DNA from: an uncultured delta proteobacterium
GTDB lineage: Bacteria; Desulfobacterota; Binatia; Binatales; Binataceae
Assembly: GCA_963724765.1 (NCBI GenBank)
Contig: CAVRVY010000001.1
Coordinates: forward strand, 640,001-704,000
Direction of reading: 5' to 3'
Length of the DNA: 64,000 nt
Below, piece after piece: positions 1 through 17,040 of this stretch. The notes below the pieces were generated by a model that worked only from the letters and a program-made list of their open reading frames with translations, had not been told where the DNA came from and made no database searches. Within the stretch, counting starts at the first letter, position 1; each line of letters begins with the position of its first letter. A program made the position numbers and the translations under genes.

Positions 1-17
1 CGATACTGCTCCCGCCG

Positions 18-10813: not shown

Positions 10814-12010
10814 ATGCTAACGCACATGCGAATTATCGTAATCGGAGCCGGGATCGGCGGCCTCGCGGCCGCGCTGACCCTTGGGCGCTCTGGCTTTGAG
10901 GTTCAGGTGTACGAACAGGCCTCCGAATTGCGCGAGGTCGGTGCCGGCGTCCAGATGAGTCCCAACGCGACGCGAATTCTCCATCGGCTCGGACTTGAGG
11001 AGCCGCTACGCCGCTTCGGAGTGCGGCCACGCGCGCGCGTCATCCGCCGCTGGGACGACGGGCGTGAGATCGCTCGCCAGCCCCTGGCCGACGCGTGCGA
11101 GCGTGACTTCGGCGCCCCCTATTATCACTTCCATCGTGCCGAACTACTCGACGTCCTTTCCGCCTCGGTGCCGGACGGCGTGCTTCATCTTGACCATCGA
11201 TGCGTCGGATTGACCCAGCGCGGGGACCATGTCGAAGTGCAATTCCATAACGGCGGGACCGCTGACGCCGACGTTGTAGTTGGCGCAGACGGCATCCACT
11301 CCACCGTGCGTGAAGCCATCCTGGGGCCGGAATCGTCCCGCTTTTCGGGACATGTGGCCTATCGCGGGTTGGTTCCGGCGGCGCGCGTTGCGCATCTCGG
11401 GATCGAGGTTGTGGCTTCCTCATGGTGGGGGCCGGACCATCACTTCGTTCATTATTTTGTTGGCGCTGGCGCGCGCTACCTCAATTGGGTCGCGGTCACT
11501 CCCGGCGAATGGCGCATCGAGTCGTGGACCGCCAGGGGCGAAGTGGCCGATGCGCTCAGGGAATTCGAGGGATGGCATCCCACGGTCCGGGCGATTATCG
11601 GCTCGGTTGTTGCGACCAATCGTTGGGCGCTCTATGACCGCGACCCGCTCCCGCAATGGACCGTTGGACGCGTGACGCTGATGGGCGATGCGGCGCACGC
11701 AATGCTCCCCTATATGGCGCAGGGCGCGGTGCAATCGATCGAGGATGCCGCGGTGCTGGCGAAATGCCTCGAACGGGCGGACGCGCGCGATGCGGGTGTC
11801 GCCCTGCGACGCTACGAACAGGCACGCAAGCCCCGCGCATCCCGATGCCAGGAGGGCTCGCGCCGCAACGGCATCATGTACCATCTTGCCGACGGCGAGG
11901 ACCAACGAAAACGCGACGCTAACCTGGCGTCCGCTACGACCGCCCCGCTACCCCAGAACGCCGCCTGGCTCTATGGCCACGACGTCGAGGCCGAATTCGA
12001 GCAAGGGTGA
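10814..12010 (+). CDS. FAD-dependent monooxygenase (salicylate hydroxylase / 6-hydroxynicotinate monooxygenase-like)
   Basis: IGAGIGG, GADGIHS, LMGDAAHAMLPYMAQGA.Q.IEDA; start may be 10826. Confidence 0.92.
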   Translation: MLTHMRIIVIGAGIGGLAAALTLGRSGFEVQVYEQASELREVGAGVQMSPNATRILHRLGLEEPLRRFGVRPRARVIRRWDDGREIARQPLADACERDFGAPYYHFHRAELLDVLSASVPDGVLHLDHRCVGLTQRGDHVEVQFHNGGTADADVVVGADGIHSTVREAILGPESSRFSGHVAYRGLVPAARVAHLGIEVVASSWWGPDHHFVHYFVGAGARYLNWVAVTPGEWRIESWTARGEVADALREFEGWHPTVRAIIGSVVATNRWALYDRDPLPQWTVGRVTLMGDAAHAMLPYMAQGAVQSIEDAAVLAKCLERADARDAGVALRRYEQARKPRASRCQEGSRRNGIMYHLADGEDQRKRDANLASATTAPLPQNAAWLYGHDVEAEFEQG

Positions 12011-12199
12011 AATCCGCAAGCACCCGTGTCGGCGGGCCGCGCGACGGATGGTCCGGGGTCGCCGCGACCCGCCACCCCACCCCAGCGGGCTCGAACTTGC
12101 CGACCCCGGCTTAGGGCAAGCCCGAGGCCCCAGATGGCCGCAGGCTACACTCGAATCCCGCCAGCGCGGTTTTCTCCTTTCACGGCGCTGTCCGTTCTG

Positions 12200-12472
12200 G
12201 AGGGAAGCCAGACAGGTGGAACTTCGAACTTCGGTACGGCACTCGTGAATCGTGGGACAAGCTCAACGAGACCGGGCGGGCGTTGCTCACGAAGTTCGTC
12301 GCTGAGGAACTCTCGCGCATCGGCAAAGTAACGGCGGCCGAAAAACCTTTTGAACTTGGAATCACCGGGATTGCGACGCCCTTTATCGGGGTTGTCGACC
12401 TCGTTGCTGAGGTCGACGCAAAACGAACAGTGCTCGACTTCAAGACATCGGGCTCAAGCTATGCGGAGCACG
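12200..12472 (+). pseudogene. PD-(D/E)XK nuclease (RecB/Cas4-like) internal fragment
   Basis: AAEKPF...FIGVVDLV...VLDFKTS; cut at an IS3 end at 12473; 5' boundary approximate. Confidence 0.7.
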
Positions 12473-14007
12473 TGGCGTGCTCCGCAACTTCCCGCCATTC
12501 ATAAGTAGAGACCGTGGTCGATTTCGCCCTCCTGGGGCGGTTGTGTTTCCTGTCCTTTATGGTCTTACCCCTTTTGGTATCCCATTCGTAAGTTAGTGTT
12601 GTCCGAGGTTTTAGGGTCATTTTCTTCATTCCAAGTTTTTCCGGCTGCCCTTCATGATCTGAGGGCGGGCGAAAAACTGGGTAGTTTTGGATCCGAGGCC
12701 GGAGCGCATCGCGCCGCGGTGGTCAGCAGTTCTTGAGCTGGCCGAGCGGTGCGCGCCAGGGCCGAGTTCCCCTGATTGACTGCCCGTGCCGCGAATTCCT
12801 CAGGGGTGAGGTCGCCGAGGCTCGAATGTGGACGTTCCCGATTGTACTCGACGCGCCATTTTTCGATCTTGCAGCGCGCATCATCGAGCGAAACGAAAAC
12901 GTGCTCGTTGAGGCATTCCTCGCGCAACCGCGCATTGAAGCTCTCGATGTGCGCGTTCTGGATCGGCTTGCCCGGTTCGATGAACTGCGCAGTTCGGGAC
13001 CATTATCCGCCTGAATCACGCTCGGCAGACCCCGCACGGTGTGCAAACGCTCCAACACCCTGGTTACACGCTCGCTGGTAAGCGAGACGTCGACTTCGAT
13101 GGCCAGGCTCTCTCGGCTCCATTGGTCGAGCACAGCGAAGGCGCGAAACCGCCGGCCGCTGATCAGACTGTCGTGAATGAAATCGACCGCCCAGGTTTGA
13201 TTGGCCGCGACAGACCGCTCGCGCACCACGCGCAGATGGCTCAAGCGTTTGCGGCGCCGCCGTCGGCGCAGTGAAAGGCCTTCTTCACGATACAGCCGCT
13301 CGACGCGTTTGTGATTGGCGCGCCAGCCTTCGCGGCGCAGCACCAGGTAGAGCATCGGACAACCCCAACGCCGTCGTTGCTCGGCTAACTCCCGCAGCCG
13401 TTGCCGCAATTGATGATTGCGATCTTCTGCCGGGGCCCGCTGGAAACCGCGCCGCGTGATGCCGATCAGCCCACACGCGCGACGCTGCGACAGAGCATGC
13501 GTGGTCATAACTTCCGCCACCATCGCGCGCTTCACAGCGGGCCGTAACCGTTTTTTGCCAGCACGTCCTTCAGCGCTCGAATATCCAGCGCCTGGTCCGC
13601 CACGATCGACTTCAGCCGTCGATTCTCTTCTTCCAGCTGCCGCAGGCGGCGCATCTCTGAGATCTCCAGCCCGCCGTACTTGCTGCGCCAGGTGTAGAAG
13701 GTCGCGTCCGAGATCCCGTGACGCCGACACAGCTCTGTCACCTTCCCGCCGGCCTCGGCCTCCTTCAGAATCGAGATGATCTGTTCTTCGCTAAACCGTG
13801 CTCGTTTCATGTCTGCCTTCCTTCCCGGCAGACACTAACTCATCGGTGGCATACCTGTAGGGGGAAAGACCATTTAAGCACCGCGAACTCGTTTGGCGTC
13901 AAGGCTCCGAGGCTGCCGTGCGGACGGAGGTGATTGTAGTCGTAGCGCCACGCTTCGATGGTCTGGCGCGCCTCGGTGAGACTGAGGAACACGTGCTCAT
14001 TGAGGCA
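12473..14007 (-). mobile_element. older IS3-family 3' remnant (12473-12559 plus 13873-14007) split by a second IS3
   Basis: CLNEHVFLSLTEARQTIEAWRYDYNHLRPHGSLG...K continues across the inner IS as GQETQPPQEGEIDHGLYL*; right end ...GCGGAGCACGCCA. Confidence 0.8.
12560..13872 (-). mobile_element. IS3-family element with both ends: orfA 13532-13810, orfB via -1 frameshift, internal deletion in orfB
   Basis: IRs TGGTCTTACCCCTTTTGGTATCCCA / TGGCATACCTGTAGGGGGAAAGACCA; TTTA duplication on both sides; A6C slippery site 13550-13556; DNGPELRS joins out of frame to FIEPGKP near 12985. Confidence 0.92.
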
Positions 14008-14945
14008 TATATGGACCCAGCCTCGGCGCAAGGCTATTTCTCGATGCTGAGAATCGGTTGCTCACATATATCCGGCCTTCTGCTGGGGTTACACTTTGGT
14101 ACCCCTGGCCCTGATGGAATCCGCGCACTTTCACCTCGTCACTCCTGCGGCCTCATGGGCCTGCCTCAACTCAGGTTTGGAAAGTGCCGGTCTGACCGGT
14201 TCGCCATCATCGCTGAAACCGCCTGCGCAATCTGGGGTTGGTAATAGCCGTTTTCCGCCCGCGGTCCCCTCAACCAACTTGGGGGATGCGGGCGGAAAAC
14301 GGCGCTGGTCGATAACTCTCACCCTTGGTGAGTAGCGCCCACAGCACGCGCGCGTTGCGGTTGGCGAGCGCGACCGCCGCCACGTTTGGTCCCTGACGGC
14401 CCTTGAGCCGGCTGATCGAGACGCTACGTGGATCCTTTCGGCCTTCCACGGTGCGCACTGCCGAGCGTGCCCCATGGATGAGGAGGGTTCGCAAATAACG
14501 GTCGCCGCGTTTGCTGATTCCGAGCAAAACCGTCCTGCCCCCGCTGGAGTGCTGACGCGGCACCAGGCCCAGCCACGCGCTCAATTCCCGACCGCTCTTG
14601 AACTCATGCGCGTTGCCCACCGCCGCCACCAGTGCGGTCGCGATCAGCGGTCCGACGCCTTCGACCTGGGCCAGACGCTGGCAGCGCGTTCATCTTGGCC
14701 AAAGACGCGCGCCACACGCAGATCGTACTGCCGAATGCGTTCGTCCAAACCCCGTAACCGCTCCGCCATCTCCACCAGCATCCCGCGGAACAGTCCGCTT
14801 AGTCCATTCTCGACATCATCGAGTATCACTGGCAGCATCCGGCGCAAGGGCGCGATGCCTCTGGTAACTACGATCCCATATTCGGCCAGCAGGCCGCGGA
14901 TCTCGTTGGCCAGCGCCGTGCGCCACTTGATGAGCTGAGCGCGAA
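14008..14945 (-). mobile_element. IS110-family (IS1111-type) element, 3' portion; transposase frameshifted and 5'-truncated
   Basis: FKSGRELSAWLGLVPRQHSSGG, GISKRGDRYLRTLLIHGA, AAVALANRNAR; ~260-bp right non-coding region; sub-terminal repeat GGCTGGGTCCAT followed by ATA. Confidence 0.88.
14020..14269 (-). ncRNA. putative IS1111 seekRNA/bridge RNA region
   Basis: Downstream of the transposase; stem GCACTTTC/GAAAGTGC encloses GTTGAGGCA and GTGACGAG, the first matching the observed target flank; boundaries approximate. Confidence 0.7.
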
Positions 14946-14957
14946 TCCGATGGGCGT

Positions 14958-15992
14958 ATGGTAATGAAGCGGCCGATGGTGGCCTTTCTGAGCCAGCTGC
15001 TGCTTGCTATCCGGTCGCGGTTCACGGGGCGCGCGCGGCTTGAGGCCGAGAATCTCCTCCTGCGCCAACAACTGGTAGTTCTACGGCGCAAGTCCCCGAC
15101 GCGCGTAAGACTGTGGAACATCGATCGCCTGCTGTTGGTATGGCTGTATCGACTTTACCCGTCGCTCCTGGACGCCATCATCATCGTCCAGCCGGAGACC
15201 GTGCTCCGCTGGCACCGACGTGGTTTCCGCGCCTACTGGCGCTGGAAGTCCCGCCACGTCGGCGGCCGTCCACGGATCGATACCGAGTTTCGAGCGCTGA
15301 TCCGGCGGATGAGCCGCGAGAACCCGCTGTGGGGCGCACCGCGGATCCACGGCGAATTGTTGATGCTTGGCATCGAAGTCGCTGAATCAACCGTCGGCAG
15401 GTATATGGTCCGGCGCCGCCGACCACCGTCCCAAGGTTGGAGGCCTTTCCTGCGCAATCACGCTGCGGGCATCGCTTCGCTGGATCTGTTCATCGTACGC
15501 ACGATCTCGTTCAAGCTGCTCTACGGTTTGGTGATCCTGCGTCACGCCCGCCGGCGGCTCGTAACAATCAGCGTCACTTCCAATCCGACCGCCGAGTGGA
15601 TCGCAGGTCAGGTAACGGACGCGTTTCCCTGGGACGAAGCGCCGCGTCACCTGATTCGCGACCGCGACGGGGCCTTCGGCCCAGCCTACACCCATCGCAT
15701 TCGGGCAATGGGGATCCGTGATCACCCGACCGCTCCGCGCTCACCGTGGCAGAACGGCCACGTCGAGCGCCTCATAGGCTCGATCCGGCGCGAATCTGTC
15801 GATCACCTGGTAGTGTTCGACGAAGCGCAGTTGCGTCGCGTTCTGAAGAATTACGCTTCCTATTACAACCAGGTCCGGACGCACCTCTCATTGGACAAGA
15901 ATGCGCCGGACTTTCGGCGCCCCCAGAAGCTCGGCTCCATCGCATCCATTTCAATTCTGGGTGGGCTGCATCACCAATATGTCAGGGTTTAG
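14958..15992 (+). CDS. integrase core (rve) domain transposase
   Basis: LEAENLLLRQQL, PETVLRWHR, ENPLWGAPRIHGEL, LIRDRD, SPWQNGHVERLIGSIRRE, LGGLHHQY. Confidence 0.9.
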   Translation: MVMKRPMVAFLSQLLLAIRSRFTGRARLEAENLLLRQQLVVLRRKSPTRVRLWNIDRLLLVWLYRLYPSLLDAIIIVQPETVLRWHRRGFRAYWRWKSRHVGGRPRIDTEFRALIRRMSRENPLWGAPRIHGELLMLGIEVAESTVGRYMVRRRRPPSQGWRPFLRNHAAGIASLDLFIVRTISFKLLYGLVILRHARRRLVTISVTSNPTAEWIAGQVTDAFPWDEAPRHLIRDRDGAFGPAYTHRIRAMGIRDHPTAPRSPWQNGHVERLIGSIRRESVDHLVVFDEAQLRRVLKNYASYYNQVRTHLSLDKNAPDFRRPQKLGSIASISILGGLHHQYVRV

Positions 15993-16145
15993 GTTTTGAC
16001 TAAGCATAGGTGGTTATCTAACCGGCACCGCTCCGGTAACAAGAATTGGAGTCAATGCGCGCCGAGATCGACGAGTTGCGTCTATCGCGCCGCGGGACTA
16101 AGAAGTCGTGTTTGGAGAGATAAAAACGGAAATCCAGGATAAATT

Positions 16146-16595
16146 ATGAAAAAGACCGATGAACTGGTGCGTGAGCTTGCTGACCGCGAGGCCATCCGCG
16201 ATCTTCCCATCCGCTACTGCGACTGCCTATGCCGAAATGATCTGGAAGGCCTAGTGAGTCTCTTCACCGAGGATGGCAGTTTCATCGTAAAAAACCCCGA
16301 GAATGAAGTCGTTACGCGTGGCCGCACAGAACTTAAGAAAATGTACGAAAATCTGGTCAGCGACGTGCACCCCCGGCCCTACACCCACACTCACGTCGTC
16401 GAATTGCGCAGCGGGGACAGCGCGACTGGCCGATGCTACATCGAGATGCGCAGCGCGAAGCTCGAGATGGAGTGGCTCGGCTCAGGCTACTACGAAGACG
16501 ACTACACAAAAGTACGCGGGGAATGGAGATTCGCCTCTCGCCGCCTCATCGAAATCGGCATGGGCCCATCGTTAAGAACCTTCATGGTGAGTTAG
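16146..16595 (+). CDS. NTF2/SnoaL-like family protein
   Basis: LADREAIRDL...Y, LFTEDG, GYYEDDY...GEWRFASR. Confidence 0.88.
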   Translation: MKKTDELVRELADREAIRDLPIRYCDCLCRNDLEGLVSLFTEDGSFIVKNPENEVVTRGRTELKKMYENLVSDVHPRPYTHTHVVELRSGDSATGRCYIEMRSAKLEMEWLGSGYYEDDYTKVRGEWRFASRRLIEIGMGPSLRTFMVS

Positions 16596-16650
16596 ACTGA
16601 ACTCCGCCACACCGCCGGTCCCTCGCGCAGCAGAGGGAGCGGGACCACCC

Positions 16651-17040
16651 TCAATGCTTATTGCGCGGGTCGTCCGACGGGTTCACGTAGGTGAACGCGA
16701 AAGGAGCCAAGCCGTGCACCTGGATGGTGGTCGGGCCTTGCGCCCATGCGTAGTGATGCACGTCTTTCGGCATGCACACGAATCCGCCGGCTTTCAGAAG
16801 ACTTCCACTCGACCTGTCAAACTTGTCTCCCATCCCGGCGCCCAGCGTCCCGCTGAGCACGGTCACGTTCTCGTCCGTTGGATGCCAATGGGGCGGGATC
16901 TTGTAGCCAGCGGGCATTTTCAGCCGCAGCGTGTATGAACCGCTGCTCGCCAACGGATTGCCGTCCAACACGGCGGCCTCGGCGCCTTTCGGGACCACGG
17001 GCGGGGCCGGCGCCCATAGGATCGCTTTGGGAGACGGGAT
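16651..17040 (-). CDS. cupin-domain protein (DUF4437-like), 5' end probably lost
   Basis: W.PAPPVVPKGAEAAVLDGNP, KIPPHWHPTDENVTVLSG, HHYAW; upstream sequence looks unrelated. Confidence 0.72.
   Translation of the reverse strand: MPSPKAILWAPAPPVVPKGAEAAVLDGNPLASSGSYTLRLKMPAGYKIPPHWHPTDENVTVLSGTLGAGMGDKFDRSSGSLLKAGGFVCMPKDVHHYAWAQGPTTIQVHGLAPFAFTYVNPSDDPRNKH

Follow-up and report, generated by a model that had tools for sequence, protein, structure and literature searches.

A remnant of an insertion sequence that ends inside the transposase gene of another mobile element raises the question of whether it arrived there by chance or was directed there, and if so by what. Such a remnant lies in a stretch of 64,000 nucleotides from an uncultured delta proteobacterium of the Binataceae (here called the window). 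A sequence-only reading had described it as an IS1111-type element that encodes a guide RNA downstream of its transposase gene, and had taken the flanking gene for the C terminus of an IS3-type orfB; both points stand. As set out below, the locus very probably holds an RNA-guided IS1111 remnant whose seekRNA/bridge-type guides are directed at the E-E-C-L-N codons of IS3 orfB (Table 1).

Table 1. Features of the remnant element, its non-coding region and the adjoining genes, in window coordinates (^, insertion point).
Feature	Position	Strand	Remarks
IS1111-type insertion sequence remnant	14008..14952	-	about positions 458-1403 of the 1403-bp full-length relative L159
Transposase pseudogene	14270..14943	-	roughly the C-terminal two thirds; PF02371, NF033542, indel table
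3' non-coding region (NCR), seekRNA/bridge-RNA-like guide RNA	14008..14269	-	262 nt, from stop codon 14270-14272 to element end 14008
Closing stem of target-binding loop, 5' arm GCACUUUC	14180..14187	-	GCACTTTC as DNA; helix 3
Conserved AACCUG	14172..14177	-	CCU pairs with conserved AGG at 14134-14136 in the consensus fold
Right-target (RT) guide GUUGAGGCA	14162..14170	-	GTTGAGGCA as DNA; complementary to top strand TGCCTCAA(C/T)
Inner hairpin GGCC-CAUGA-GGCC between the two guides	14149..14161	-	helix 6
Left-target (LT) guide AGGAGU	14141..14146	-	same sense as last 5 nt of left flank plus core T
Conserved GAYNAGG (here GACGAGG)	14134..14140	-	base counts per column, 64 non-redundant relatives
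Closing stem, 3' arm GAAAGUGC	14125..14132	-	GAAAGTGC as DNA; consensus fold, pair counts
Donor (right-end) guide GGAUAUAUG	14065..14073	-	same sense as the element's own right end CCAT-ATA-T-G
Right subterminal inverted repeat GAGGCTGGGTCCAT	14011..14024	-	perfect partner ATGGACCCAGCCTC at left end of relatives
3-bp right terminal extension ATA	14008..14010	-	T at 14007 is the shared core base
Target right half TGCCTCAAT (C-L-N codons)	13999-14007	-	abuts the element's right end
C-terminal fragment of interrupted IS3-family orfB (CLNEHVFLSLTEARQTIEAWRYDYNHLRPHGSL...)	13840..14007	-	rve_3 and NCBIfam IS3 model
Intact predicted target AGGAATGCCTCAAC (E-E-C-L-N)	12907..12920	-	neighbouring uninterrupted IS3 orfB, homologous codon
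Other-IS transposase ORF (rve_3 and HTH_32; IS481/IS3-like)	14958..15992	+	adjoins the remnant's truncation point

The remnant is a 5'-truncated, frameshifted IS1111-type element, 94.3% identical over the aligned part to the complete element at L159 (95% in a DNA search of genomes). Its coding part matches Pfam Transposase_20 (PF02371; E 6.9e-18) and positions 237-342 of 343 of the NCBIfam model NF033542, "IS110 family RNA-guided transposase" (E 2.3e-32). The GL-P----S(t)G motif of the IS1111 group, defined for the C-terminal domain in passages of PMC11187229, is present as WLGLVPRQHSSGG in the open reading frame (ORF) at 14270-14629. This ORF and that at 14644-14847 are in different frames, the pseudogene being shifted, with L159 as the reference, by a 2-nt insertion at 14687-14688. 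From the architecture of the IS1111 group (a RuvC-like DEDD domain at the N terminus plus PF02371 at the C terminus, 330-350 amino acids) the window copy keeps the C-terminal part only, and the N terminus is lost. Across the N-terminal region the L159 element (94-95% identical) encodes MKVTTLGIDLAK... (translation only), and a 71%-related protein of 346 amino acids from the same genome (C3:109603-110640) has both PF01548 and PF02371. No second copy of the same element species is present in the genome, and a tblastn search of it with a full-length relative as the query found no N-terminal fragment. With its transposase gene truncated and frameshifted and no intact same-species copy in the genome, the window copy is predicted to be immobile. 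Beyond the ORF that adjoins the truncation point, the ORF list of the window shows no IS1111- or IS3-like sequence.

On the minus strand the right junction reads GGCTGGGTCCAT-ATA-TGCCTCAATGAGCA (13994-14022), as in the sequence-only reading, and the other strings named there (the stem arms, two guide segments and TATATG at 14065-14070) also lie on that strand where it had placed them. Right junctions of ∼55 relatives read CCAT-NTA-Y-G, and left junctions of ∼40 have the layout LT-Y-(A/G)ATGG(G/A)AT-sTIR. Subterminal inverted repeats in the IS1111 group measure about 11-13 bp. The left copy of the repeat is lost in the window together with the left end of the element; its perfect partner was found in the full-length L159, L145, L144, L149, and L165 (10/10 on the probed core). 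The flanks and ends of L159 (GAGGAA ^ TAATGGA-ATGGACCC ... GGGTCCAT-ATA ^ TGCCTC) leave one T as the sole ambiguity and show extensions of 7 bp on the left and 3 bp on the right without target duplication, a layout shared by the ∼40 relatives; the same lengths are given as the IS1111 rule in passages of PMC11187229. The core in this family is a single shared Y (T/C). A core TG placed directly before GGAT-GGACC, with an 11-nt circle-junction match in C3_110, was dropped because the ∼40 left junctions show the above layout, in agreement with the 7-bp left extension published in those passages (PMC11187229).

A long NCR downstream of the transposase gene is a trait of the IS1111 group, and that of the remnant belongs to a widespread RNA family. 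We obtained a consensus fold of 27 sequences with RNAalifold and pair counts, with shuffled and slid controls. Stem pairing across the 27 relatives reached 94.0% of cells, versus 75.4% in shuffles and 28.8-45.4% in slid controls, and 110 cells were changed on both sides, versus 29.9 in shuffles, with the observed value reached in 0 of 500. The covariation is more than chance. Both-side changes were seen at 7/7 pairs of the closing stem (94.2% of cells paired) and at 3/4 pairs of the inner hairpin (95.3%); the CCU/AGG pairs (37-39 with 85-87) were formed in 25 to 27 of the 27 sequences and, being invariant, carry no covariation either way. The consensus is a conserved structure that presents both target guides in an internal loop, and the single-sequence fold of the window NCR was weakly better than shuffles (z = -1.79). 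No Rfam family matched the guide RNA when 12000-17000 was scanned with cmscan (E up to 1); the subthreshold matches to P35 (31 bits, gathering 70) and CRISPR-DR (23.3, gathering 39) are at chance level, neither of them at the loop. From soil RNA libraries, a 151-nt contig overlaps 13994-14140 with 7 differences and 2 gaps, 14 nt being on the flank side, which neither shows nor excludes transcription. Three such libraries had small shares of the element's words, with contigs covering parts of the transposase gene, and no RNA sequencing run contained half of these words.

Within this loop, the first segment that the sequence-only reading had assigned as a guide for the right flank is confirmed as the RT guide. 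The sequence complementary to it consists of the core T and the right flank, and it fits the real flank at 8/9 positions, or 9/9 when the terminal G.T wobble is counted. When the reverse complement of the RNA was compared with the element's own right flank, the longest exact match was at least 7 nt in 27 of 49 elements, versus 4.0% of mismatched pairs. Every group A relative carries a guide (A/G)UUGAGGC(G/A) and sits at TGCCTCAAY, TGCCTTAAC, or TGCCTCGAC. TATATG, earlier only a candidate donor guide, is part of GGAUAUAUG, which covaries with the right end over 5 positions: those after GGAU/CCAT agree in 80-85% of 60 elements, versus 44-86% in mismatched pairs, and the variants ATACG, ACATG, AGATG, CTATG, GTACG, GTAGG, and ATACA all covary with the right end. 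An extension of this guide into the right flank was rejected, positions 6-10 being at background. For the left end, (A)UUCCAU at 14114-14120 matches ATGGAAT and is tentatively proposed as a donor guide; it is mostly invariant, with one position that covaries above background (0.95 versus 0.76).

The left-target guide required a revision. The second guide had been read as GTGACGAG (14135-14142; RNA GUGACGAG), so that GUUGAGGCA and GUGACGAG would spell R-D-E^C-L-N with the left guide abutting the insertion point. Such sites exist, since GCGACGAG^TGCCTCAAC is found in 5 of 17 uninterrupted IS3 loci (L094, L099, L100, L101, and L107), where GUGACGAG would pair with GCGACGAG at 8/8 positions with one U.G wobble, and the left flank in G079 ends in GACGAG. 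However, in the 40 relatives with both junctions this register does no better than background (on average 2.12 of 8, with a score of 5 or more in 0 of 40), whereas the register 7 nt upstream averages 5.67 of 8, compared with 2.29 of 8 in mismatched pairs, of which 1.35% reach 6 or more. In the upstream register, agreement with the element's own left flank is 85, 88, 92, 88, 82, and 92% in columns 3-8 and 18-22% in columns 1-2. Because these 6 nt match at 82-92% per position and the GTGACGAG register is at background, the predicted left target of the window copy, whose left flank is lost, is AGGAG^T (E-E^C) rather than GTGACGAG, and the guide is AGGAGU. In addition, most of GUGACGAG consists of YGAUNAGG, a motif conserved throughout the family, here with a single T>C change (G at column 14 in 63/64 relatives, A at column 13 in 59/64, and T at column 11 in 51/64). 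The segment is kept even where elements have unrelated targets; the consensus fold pairs CCU with the AGG that contains its AG, and the GAY of the conserved segment resembles the IS left end (A/G)AT. The GACGAG flanks do not call for it either, as they are explained by sister copies that have GAUGAGG and carry ACGAGU in place of AGGAGU, and its resemblance to the target is a coincidence, the conserved GAUGAG being similar to Asp-Glu codons. We thus consider GUGACGAG highly improbable as the left guide. For the AGGAGU allele one cognate left flank was observed, in L159, where the guide faces AGGAA^T in a match that includes a G.T wobble. The two guides overlap at the core T, with the top-strand-complementary GUUGAGGCA on the 5' side and AGGAGU on the 3' side, the arrangement of seekRNA/bridge RNA. 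Loop columns were assigned by profile anchoring; a regex parse had left 17 elements unparsed and several mis-split.

The flanking gene matches two models, rve_3 from profile position 31 of 67 (E 5.9e-13) and that of NCBIfam for IS3 at positions 330-368 of 369. Uninterrupted homologous orfBs in 17 related loci read ..LRDECLNEHVF; one of these rows, L094, comes from the unpublished genome G163, and we make no claim on L094 alone. Those uninterrupted relatives that come closest to the interrupted IS3 (82-92% identical) have GA(C/T)GA(G/A)^T, that is D-E, not GAGGAG^T, and AGGAGU fits them at 5/6 positions at best. The lost left flank was not recovered from the sole close copy of the interrupted IS3 (C3:902266-902387, 95%), which has an internal deletion across the site, and related IS3 copies in genomes of the family yield an inferred left flank only. 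The neighbouring IS3 reads CGCGAGGAA^TGCCTCAAC and is uninterrupted there, as noted before. It contains the single match to AGGARTGCCTCAAY in the 5,415,031-base genome (12907..12920), for a chance expectation of ∼0.16 occurrences of the full 14-nt site in a genome of uniform composition; TGCCTCAAY alone occurs 39 times. This perfect site, 1.1 kb away, has presumably stayed untouched because the window copy is immobile and an intact same-species copy is absent from the genome.

Relatives were sought in 165 genomes by a family-wide DNA search, the order-level search covering the same 165 genomes with L159 as the query and adding the left junction in G079. The genomes compared include the unpublished G163, G018, G157, G164, and G017, and no claim is made on L128, the one listed NCR from G017, alone. 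A protein scan of genome contigs gave no close copy (best match, 76% amino acid identity) and supplied 80 loci for the family rules. The DNA search found the same IS in G089 (93%) and G124 (95%), with the right flank TGCCTCAATGA in both followed by differing IS3 orfB sequence. Metagenomes were probed with the element's terminal 23-mer, without guide or flank, and an exact match was required, so that diverged copies with other flanks were not sampled. The probe returned 32 loci, 9 of them in an IS3-type orfB: 7 at TGCCTCAAY, one at TGCCTTAAC (L146), and one at TGCCTCGAC (L158), the variants differing only at positions that still pair as G.U wobbles. All six parsable loci among the nine have the RT guide AGUUGAGGCG. 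Two left flanks were recovered (REE^ and QDE^). The complete L159 reads ..CTGCGCGAGGAA^TAATGGAAT-GGACCCAGCCTC, with the LT guide AGGAGU and the right flank TGCCTCAACCAA, and the left junction in G079, ..CAAGACGAG^TGATGGAAT-GGACCC, lies inside a decayed IESVNGRSQDE orfB. Close copies of the element are 92-95% identical where measured, with the junction at the same codon. The flanks expected by the sequence-only reading were found on the right side (TGCCTCAAY, with the two wobble-compatible variants in close copies), but its GTGACGAG-type left guide is not supported; its proposal that IS3 genes serve as landing sites agrees with the repeated presence of the element and its close kin at one codon of IS3-type transposase genes. 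IS3 targeting by the lineage is supported by these comparisons, since close copies and elements with the same right end sit at the same IS3 codon.

We considered whether this location could be incidental or inherited, either because one IS3::IS1111 chimera spread as a unit or through a few chance insertions, with no IS3 specialisation. Some right flanks are indeed alike at 84%, 86%, and 92% (the pairs window/L141, L146/L159, and L152/L111, all within 84-92%), which could reflect shared ancestry rather than independent events; the same insertion was seen twice or more (L111 = L140 = L150; L123 = L162; L141 = L155), and the left junctions number two. Yet the 8 distinct IS3-type right flanks, counting the window and the two genomes, are 54-92% identical to each other, and at least 5 of the 8 are less than 80% identical and encode different orfB C termini, next to elements that are 92-95% identical. 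The junction is at the identical nucleotide in all copies, the guides match the site on both sides, and sister lineages whose RT guide differs are found at another site, which fits that guide. An incidental or inherited location is very unlikely on this evidence.

The other 23 of the 32 probe loci lie outside IS3-type orfB. A second transposase family hosts four complete elements (group B) as well as L160 and L170, 13 loci are at GTCATAA-like sites (group C), and the flanks of four loci, L147, L153, L163, and L166/L167 (taken as a single pair within C), are of other kinds or were not parsed. In the 15 non-IS3 loci that were parsed the RT guides differ, as predicted by the RNA-guide model (L160, L170, L163, L147, and several others were unparsed). 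These loci also bear on the idea that the transposase protein reads the site directly and that the matches in the NCR arise as a side effect, as when target bases are copied into the element. Contacts with the protein could account for the conserved ATG-like bases at both junctions; but in elements with near-identical ends and similar proteins the guides change together with the flanks on both sides, and groups A and B, with the same terminal 23-mer, differ in both RT guide and target. Moreover, passages of PMC11187229 report that the NCR-derived RNA is essential and reprogrammable in four IS1111 relatives. Direct readout by the protein is hardly credible in our view, and we retain RNA guidance.

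The anatomy of the element, the covariation of the RNA fold, the family-wide covariation of guides with flanks, and the repeated insertion of close relatives at this codon were all observed. In the mechanism that we propose, an IS1111-type element with a DEDD transposase would once have inserted into the orfB of an IS3-family element, and its right two thirds would now be left in a decayed state. From published work on relatives, we infer that this RNA is transcribed and, bound to the transposase, guides recombination. In this RNA, the covarying stem would close an internal loop whose 5' strand, GUUGAGGCA, would pair with the top strand of the target (T-GCCTCAAC). On the 3' strand, past the small GGCC hairpin, AGGAGU would pair with the bottom strand opposite AGGAG-T, and the single core T at which the two matches overlap would be the strand-exchange point. 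Further downstream, GGAUAUAUG would act as the donor guide matching the element's own right end. The guides would jointly specify AGGAG-T-GCCTCAAC, or (G)AG GAG TGC CTC AAC, hence E-E-C-L-N instead of the R-D-E left target predicted earlier. In IS3-type DDE transposases we place this site some ten codons past the catalytic Glu. Insertion would split and inactivate the IS3 transposase gene and spare host genes.

IS4321 and IS5075, reportedly described by Partridge and Hall in 2003, are said to be IS1111-family elements found at one position and in one orientation inside another mobile element; their reported target is the 38-bp terminal repeats of Tn21-family transposons, not transposase coding sequence, and their left extension is said to be TAATGAG, a very similar end structure (TAATGGA here). 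The core of IS621 is a dinucleotide, whereas the element here has a single-Y core and a left-target guide of just 6 nt. Its donor part also differs from that of IS621 in that it is not a simple internal loop, the 5-nt right-end guide covarying and the left-end CCAU/ATGG being mostly invariant. The IS621 bridge RNA (Durrant et al. 2024, PMC11208160; Hiraizumi et al. 2024, PMC11208158) shares the two-part, opposite-strand recognition of the target around a short core and the separate donor part, and according to a passage of PMC11208160, 93.0% of IS1111 elements are predicted to have a bridge RNA in their right end. As described in passages of Siddiquee et al. 2024 (PMC11187229), ISEc11, ISKpn4, ISPst6, and ISPa11 have the same DEDD/PF02371 transposase, subterminal inverted repeats, 7/3-bp extensions, and long downstream NCR without target duplication, and their seekRNAs have the same order, with the top-strand segment 5' of the bottom-strand segment and matches that overlap in the target. 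Their targets in these passages are a short linear site, an attC site, or a REP sequence, whereas the target here is a protein-coding motif inside another IS, and our element is a dead copy. The same passages present ISEc21, an IS110-type element that targets conserved codons in the catalytic domain of IS3-family transposases; like the element here, it is an RNA-guided IS110-family IS that lands in and disrupts other ISs, but its NCR is upstream, it is without long subterminal repeats, and its two target matches are in reversed order. Unlike ISEc21, the lineage here is IS1111-type and uses the site (D/E)E^CLN. IS110-family targeting of IS3 transposase codons is no new category, as it was already published for ISEc21, and the sequence-only reading had overstated the novelty in this respect. 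The exact target site was unreported in the literature searched, and IS1111 members aimed at IS3 may appear in Supplementary Fig. 11 and the target logos of PMC11187229.

The locus would provide a natural example of an RNA-guided recombinase choosing a safe landing site, a 14-nt sequence kept constant by selection on the catalytic core of another transposon and therefore abundant, multicopy, and harmless to the host. For this IS1111 subgroup it suggests an explicit guide grammar in which the right guide has 9 nt, the left guide 6 nt, the core one base, and the donor guide 5 nt, together with a conserved YGAUNAGG/CCU clamp. The family comparison shows natural retargeting between transposase families, which is useful for the annotation of IS1111 targets and for seekRNA engineering. 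A wider reading, for which we would stop a little short of even confidence, is that this clade of soil-bacterial IS1111-type elements comprises specialised hyperparasites of DDE-transposase genes, reprogrammed via the right guide. As one joint claim, it would have lineages with the same terminal 23-mer and the left guide ACGAGU, in which essentially the right guide alone changed, move between the homologous codon of IS3 orfB (..(D/E)E^CLNE) and of an rve_3/IS481-like family (..RRE^CLDH), split both transposase families between positions 29 and 30 of the rve_3 profile, and spawn guide-less miniature derivatives that still land at the site. If so, these elements may naturally antagonise competing ISs by knocking them out.

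At positions 14952-14008 of the window (minus strand), an insertion sequence is preserved in its right two thirds. The ORF piece at 14270-14629 (see the table) matched Pfam Transposase_20 (E 6.9e-18) and the NCBIfam model 'IS110 family RNA-guided transposase' (E 2.3e-32, model positions 237-342 of 343). Besides a truncation, the transposase gene shows a 2-nt insertion compared with its closest relative, and no further copy of the same IS1111 species was found in its own assembly. Directly after the element end, the bases TGCCTCAATGAGCACGTGTTC... translate as CLNEHVFLSLTEARQTIEAWRYDYNHLRPHGSL, and this right flank matched rve_3 from profile position 31 of 67 and an IS3 model at positions 330-368 of 369. 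No IS1111 or IS3 continuation was found in the window past the unrelated transposase ORF that adjoins the other side; thus, neither the left end nor the left flank survives. The segment 12650-14007 consists of nested insertion sequences: what remains of the interrupted IS3 orfB, its C-terminal fragment, runs to near 13875, and a second IS3-family element follows directly. A copy of the interrupted IS3, 95% identical, lies elsewhere in the genome (G000:C3:901416-902500) with an internal deletion that fuses ..SDNGTELT to HVLLSLTE and removes the target codons; measured from the IS1111 insertion point, the right edge of this deletion lies 11 nt downstream.

Features of the window element, its RNA, its surroundings and its relatives (L-numbers, relative loci; G-numbers, genomes of the same bacterial family, G000 being the element's own)
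Feature	Position	Strand	Remarks
Transposase ORF pieces	14644-14847; 14270-14629	minus	frames differ
Non-coding region			262 nt, 3' of the stop codon
Element terminus	14024-14008	minus	GAGGCTGGGTCCAT-ATA
Unrelated transposase ORF	14958-15992	plus	rve_3 + HTH_32; adjoins the truncated upstream side of the element
Second IS3-family element, orfA	13532-13810
Second IS3-family element, orfB	12723-13730; 12652-12927		apparently frameshifted
RNA outer helix	~14203-14207; ~14113-14117		GAUGG/CCAUC; alignment columns 1-5 with 108-114
RNA main stem			7-8 bp, GCACUUUC/GAAAGUGC, as in the sequence-only reading
RNA clamp			conserved CCU...AGG
RNA inner hairpin			GGCC; splits the enclosed loop into 5' and 3' strands
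Left-target columns 1-2			GC in window; own left flank match 18-22%
Left-target columns 3-8	14146-14141		AGGAGU; own left flank match 85, 88, 92, 88, 82, 92%
Left-target columns 9-15			counts of 64: G 51, A 38 or T 24, T 51, N, A 59, G 63, G 58
Predicted IS3 orfB target			GAGGAGTGCCTCAAC
Own-genome family members (G000)	C3:109510-110920; C3:212700-214170; C3:17233-17440; C4:1700111-1700770; C1:276198-276560
Loci at TGCCTCAAY			L140, L141, L150, L152, L155, L159, L162
Loci at variant IS3-type sites			L146 at TGCCTTAAC; L158 at TGCCTCGAC
Left-target allele ACGAGU (D-E|C)			L140, L141, L155, L158 (parsed); L150, G089 (raw sequence)
Left-target allele AGGAGU (E-E|C)			window, L152, L159

A protein-seeded scan with one genome per species gave 80 loci (top match 76% protein identity), most of which have the same downstream region as the window element. 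In its own genome, five other non-coding regions are ~70% identical to that of the window, and one of these family members encodes an intact 346-aa transposase. Their guides differ, each matching its own flanks (e.g., AGGGACAGG at 9/9 and TGGTCACG at 8/9 positions). We built a consensus fold from 27 diverse family members, in which 94.0% of cells were paired, versus 75.4% in shuffles, and 110 cells were changed on both sides, versus 29.9; none of 500 shuffles reached the observed value, and a control with partners slid by 1-3 columns gave 28.8-45.4% paired. The main stem varied on both sides in 7/7 pairs. The CCU/AGG clamp is invariant, so covariation neither supports nor contradicts it. Folded alone, the window sequence was slightly better than shuffles (z = -1.79), and no Rfam model covered the window RNA.

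Inside this fold, AACCUG and the inner hairpin bracket a variable segment of 9-11 nt whose sequence is the reverse complement of the core base Y together with the right flank. When the reverse-complemented RNA was compared register-free with the 12-nt flank of its own element, the longest exact match measured at least 7 nt in 27/49 non-redundant elements, a level reached by just 4.0% of mismatched RNA-flank pairs, which bears out the right-target guide proposed from the window alone. The window guide GUUGAGGCA forms 8 Watson-Crick pairs and one G.T wobble with its own flank TGCCTCAAT and pairs perfectly with TGCCTCAAC.

The second guide of that proposal, GUGACGAG, proved misplaced. With all non-coding regions anchored to a profile, we set 15 columns (window: GCAGGAGU|GACGAGG) against the left flanks of 40 elements; the counterpart of columns 3-8 is the final five bases of the left flank plus the core Y. 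The match to the own flank averaged 5.67 of 8, versus 2.29 of 8 for mismatched pairs, only 1.35% of which reached at least 6. Columns 9-15 are conserved regardless of target. The originally proposed segment covers columns 7-14, and in that register the match to the own left flank was at background (mean 2.12 of 8, at least 5 in 0/40). The conserved GAU following the core looks like the element's own left end, (A/G)AT. In IS621, a handshake pairing is known. By analogy, the conserved GAU may act in a similar way.

The flanks of other copies, on which the sequence-only reading had staked its claim, placed the close copies again in IS3-type orfB. A DNA search of 165 genomes of the same family recovered the same insertion sequence in G089 (93%) and G124 (95%, a match to the last 130 nt of the element at a contig start), both with the right flank TGCCTCAATGA followed by differing orfB sequences (CLNEHLFFGLAEA and CLNEQVFRWLDDA). 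The element's terminal 23-mer, free of guide and flank, then served as a metagenome probe and gave 32 loci, 9 of them in IS3-type orfB. The right-target guide was AGUUGAGGCG in 6/6 parsed IS3-sited loci (L140, L141, L152, L155, L158, and L159), and the raw sequence of L150, which lay outside the script parse, and of G089 read AAUUGAGGCG. The two variant sites deviate from the guide just where G.U wobbles stay possible. Among the remaining 23 loci, the 15 with a parsed guide region have different guides, at sites matching them. With the window and the two genomes included, there were 8 distinct IS3-type right flanks (mutual identity, 54-92%), and the proposed IS3 orfB target is therefore upheld; pairs at 84%, 86%, and 92% might have common ancestry. 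The same insertion was plainly resampled in three clusters (L111 = L140 = L150, L123 = L162, and L141 = L155).

Two left junctions were recovered among close relatives. L159 is complete at 1403 bp, shares 94-95% identity with the window remnant and, like it, is frameshifted. It has the left junction ..TTCAACAGCAGGCTGCGCGAGGAA|TAATGGAAT-GGACCCAGCCTC, the left-target guide AGGAGU, and the right flank TGCCTCAACCAACACGTC, which together give the target LREE|CLNQ. G079 (85% identical, 3' part replaced) has the junction ..TCGCAAGACGAG|TGATGGAAT-GGACCC within a decayed IESVNGRSQDE. Close relatives carry two left-target alleles (see the table), and the GAC variant of the window also occurs in L152.

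Combined, the two window guides spell AGGAG-T-GCCTCAAC; read in frame with the flank, it is (G)AG GAG TGC CTC AAC, or E-E-C-L-N. TGCCTCAAY occurs 39 times in the 5,415,031-base genome, the guide itself and the junction counted in. The 14-nt pattern AGGARTGCCTCAAY, with a chance expectation of ~0.16 matches under uniform base composition, occurs once, at window 12920-12907 in the neighboring uninterrupted IS3 orfB (ESFNARLREECLNEHVF). The left side of this site pairs at 6/6 positions, one of them a G.T wobble, and the right side at 9/9. It had been described as a variant left uninterrupted; it is indeed uninterrupted, and it is the best predicted target in the genome. The perfect site is untouched because the window copy is dead (truncated, with a 2-nt insertion and no sister copy). 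Across 17 uninterrupted IS3 relatives from family genomes, including L094 from an unpublished genome, ACGAGTGCCTCAAC was exact in 5 and ACGAATGCCTCAAC in 4.

The ends of the family are uniform. Right junctions (~55) read sTIR...CCAT-NTA-Y-G-flank, sTIR being the subterminal inverted repeat, and left junctions (~40) read flank-Y-(A/G)ATGG(G/A)AT-GGACC...(sTIR). When AT is counted into the inverted repeat, the left extension is 7 bp (TAATGGA) and the right 3 bp (ATA), with one Y in common, the layout given for IS1111 members by Siddiquee et al. 2024 (PMC11187229). In a minority of elements (C3_110, L012, L062, L082, and similar), the core base is C instead of T, usually in the left-target guide, both junctions, and the donor guide alike; C3_110 is mixed: its guides and right junction read C, its left junction T.

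Further downstream in the RNA, the conserved CCGGAU-NUAYG and the right end CCAT-NTAYG share five positions in 80-85% of 60 elements, a few mis-anchored rows counted in. Covariation extends over ten variant classes, and positions 6-10 are at background. The TATATG suggested earlier as a weak donor-guide candidate is part of this motif (GGAUAUAUG, 14073-14065) and is strengthened by the family covariation. Guide and right end share one sense; since the motif is nearly palindromic, a complementary reading looks equally good in the window copy alone. A candidate left-end donor guide, AUUCCAU (14120-14114) against ATGGAAT, is mostly invariant. The outer helix has the same sequence as the left end (A/G)ATGG, and its rare variants (GAUAG/CUAUC; ..CAUC with ATGA or ATGT left ends) change jointly with that end, making a three-way match between RNA 5' strand, RNA 3' strand, and DNA left end. 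Its CCAU may pair with RNA or with donor DNA.

Other lineages share the right end. One, with the same terminal 23-mer, comprises L145, L156, L168, and L169 (complete, 1401 bp) plus L160 and L170, with the left-target guide ACGAGU and the right-target guide AAUCCAAGCG. Its site, ..ATCCGCCGCGAG|TGTTTGGATCAT (..SIRRE|CLDHIVIFNQRHLR), lies in a different rve_3-type transposase, related to window ORF 14958-15992, and splits the rve_3 profile at position 29|30, homologous to the IS3 site. At its 23-mer match, L170 is a miniature derivative of ~100 bp, in which the left end TAATGGAA-GGACCCAGCC is joined to the final stretch of the non-coding region plus the right end, without transposase gene or guide loop (site, ..IRRE|CLGQVIVINESHL). 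A third lineage (L143, L144, L148, L149, L151, L154, L157, L161, L164, L165, and L171, plus L142 and L166/L167) has guides UUUAUGAC.. and (U)UAUCU and sites ..TTTATC|T..GTCATAA(G/C).., which on the opposite strand resemble a ribosome-binding site and start codon (AAGGAGGTTATGAC).

IS1111 members encode a seekRNA in their downstream non-coding region, whose top-strand match comes first, on the 5' side, and overlaps the bottom-strand match in the target (Siddiquee et al. 2024, PMC11187229); the same study supplied a transposase and long non-coding region in trans and describes ISEc21, an IS110-type element that targets conserved codons of IS3-family transposases. For 93.0% of IS1111 elements, bridge RNAs were predicted in the right end (Durrant et al. 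2024, PMC11208160). Both the mechanism and the notion of IS3 transposase codons as a landing site are thus already known, and the sequence-only reading overrated its novelty. Within the main-text literature searched, no account turned up of an IS1111-type element directed at (D/E)E|CLN codons; the lineage of the window element, its exact site, and the worked-out guide grammar are new. What that reading observed is confirmed, every quoted string being in place, and its interpretation is partly supported: right for the target and first guide, wrong for the second guide and the degree of novelty. Altogether, the window remnant is very probably an RNA-guided IS1111-type element whose guides specify a site in IS3 orfB.
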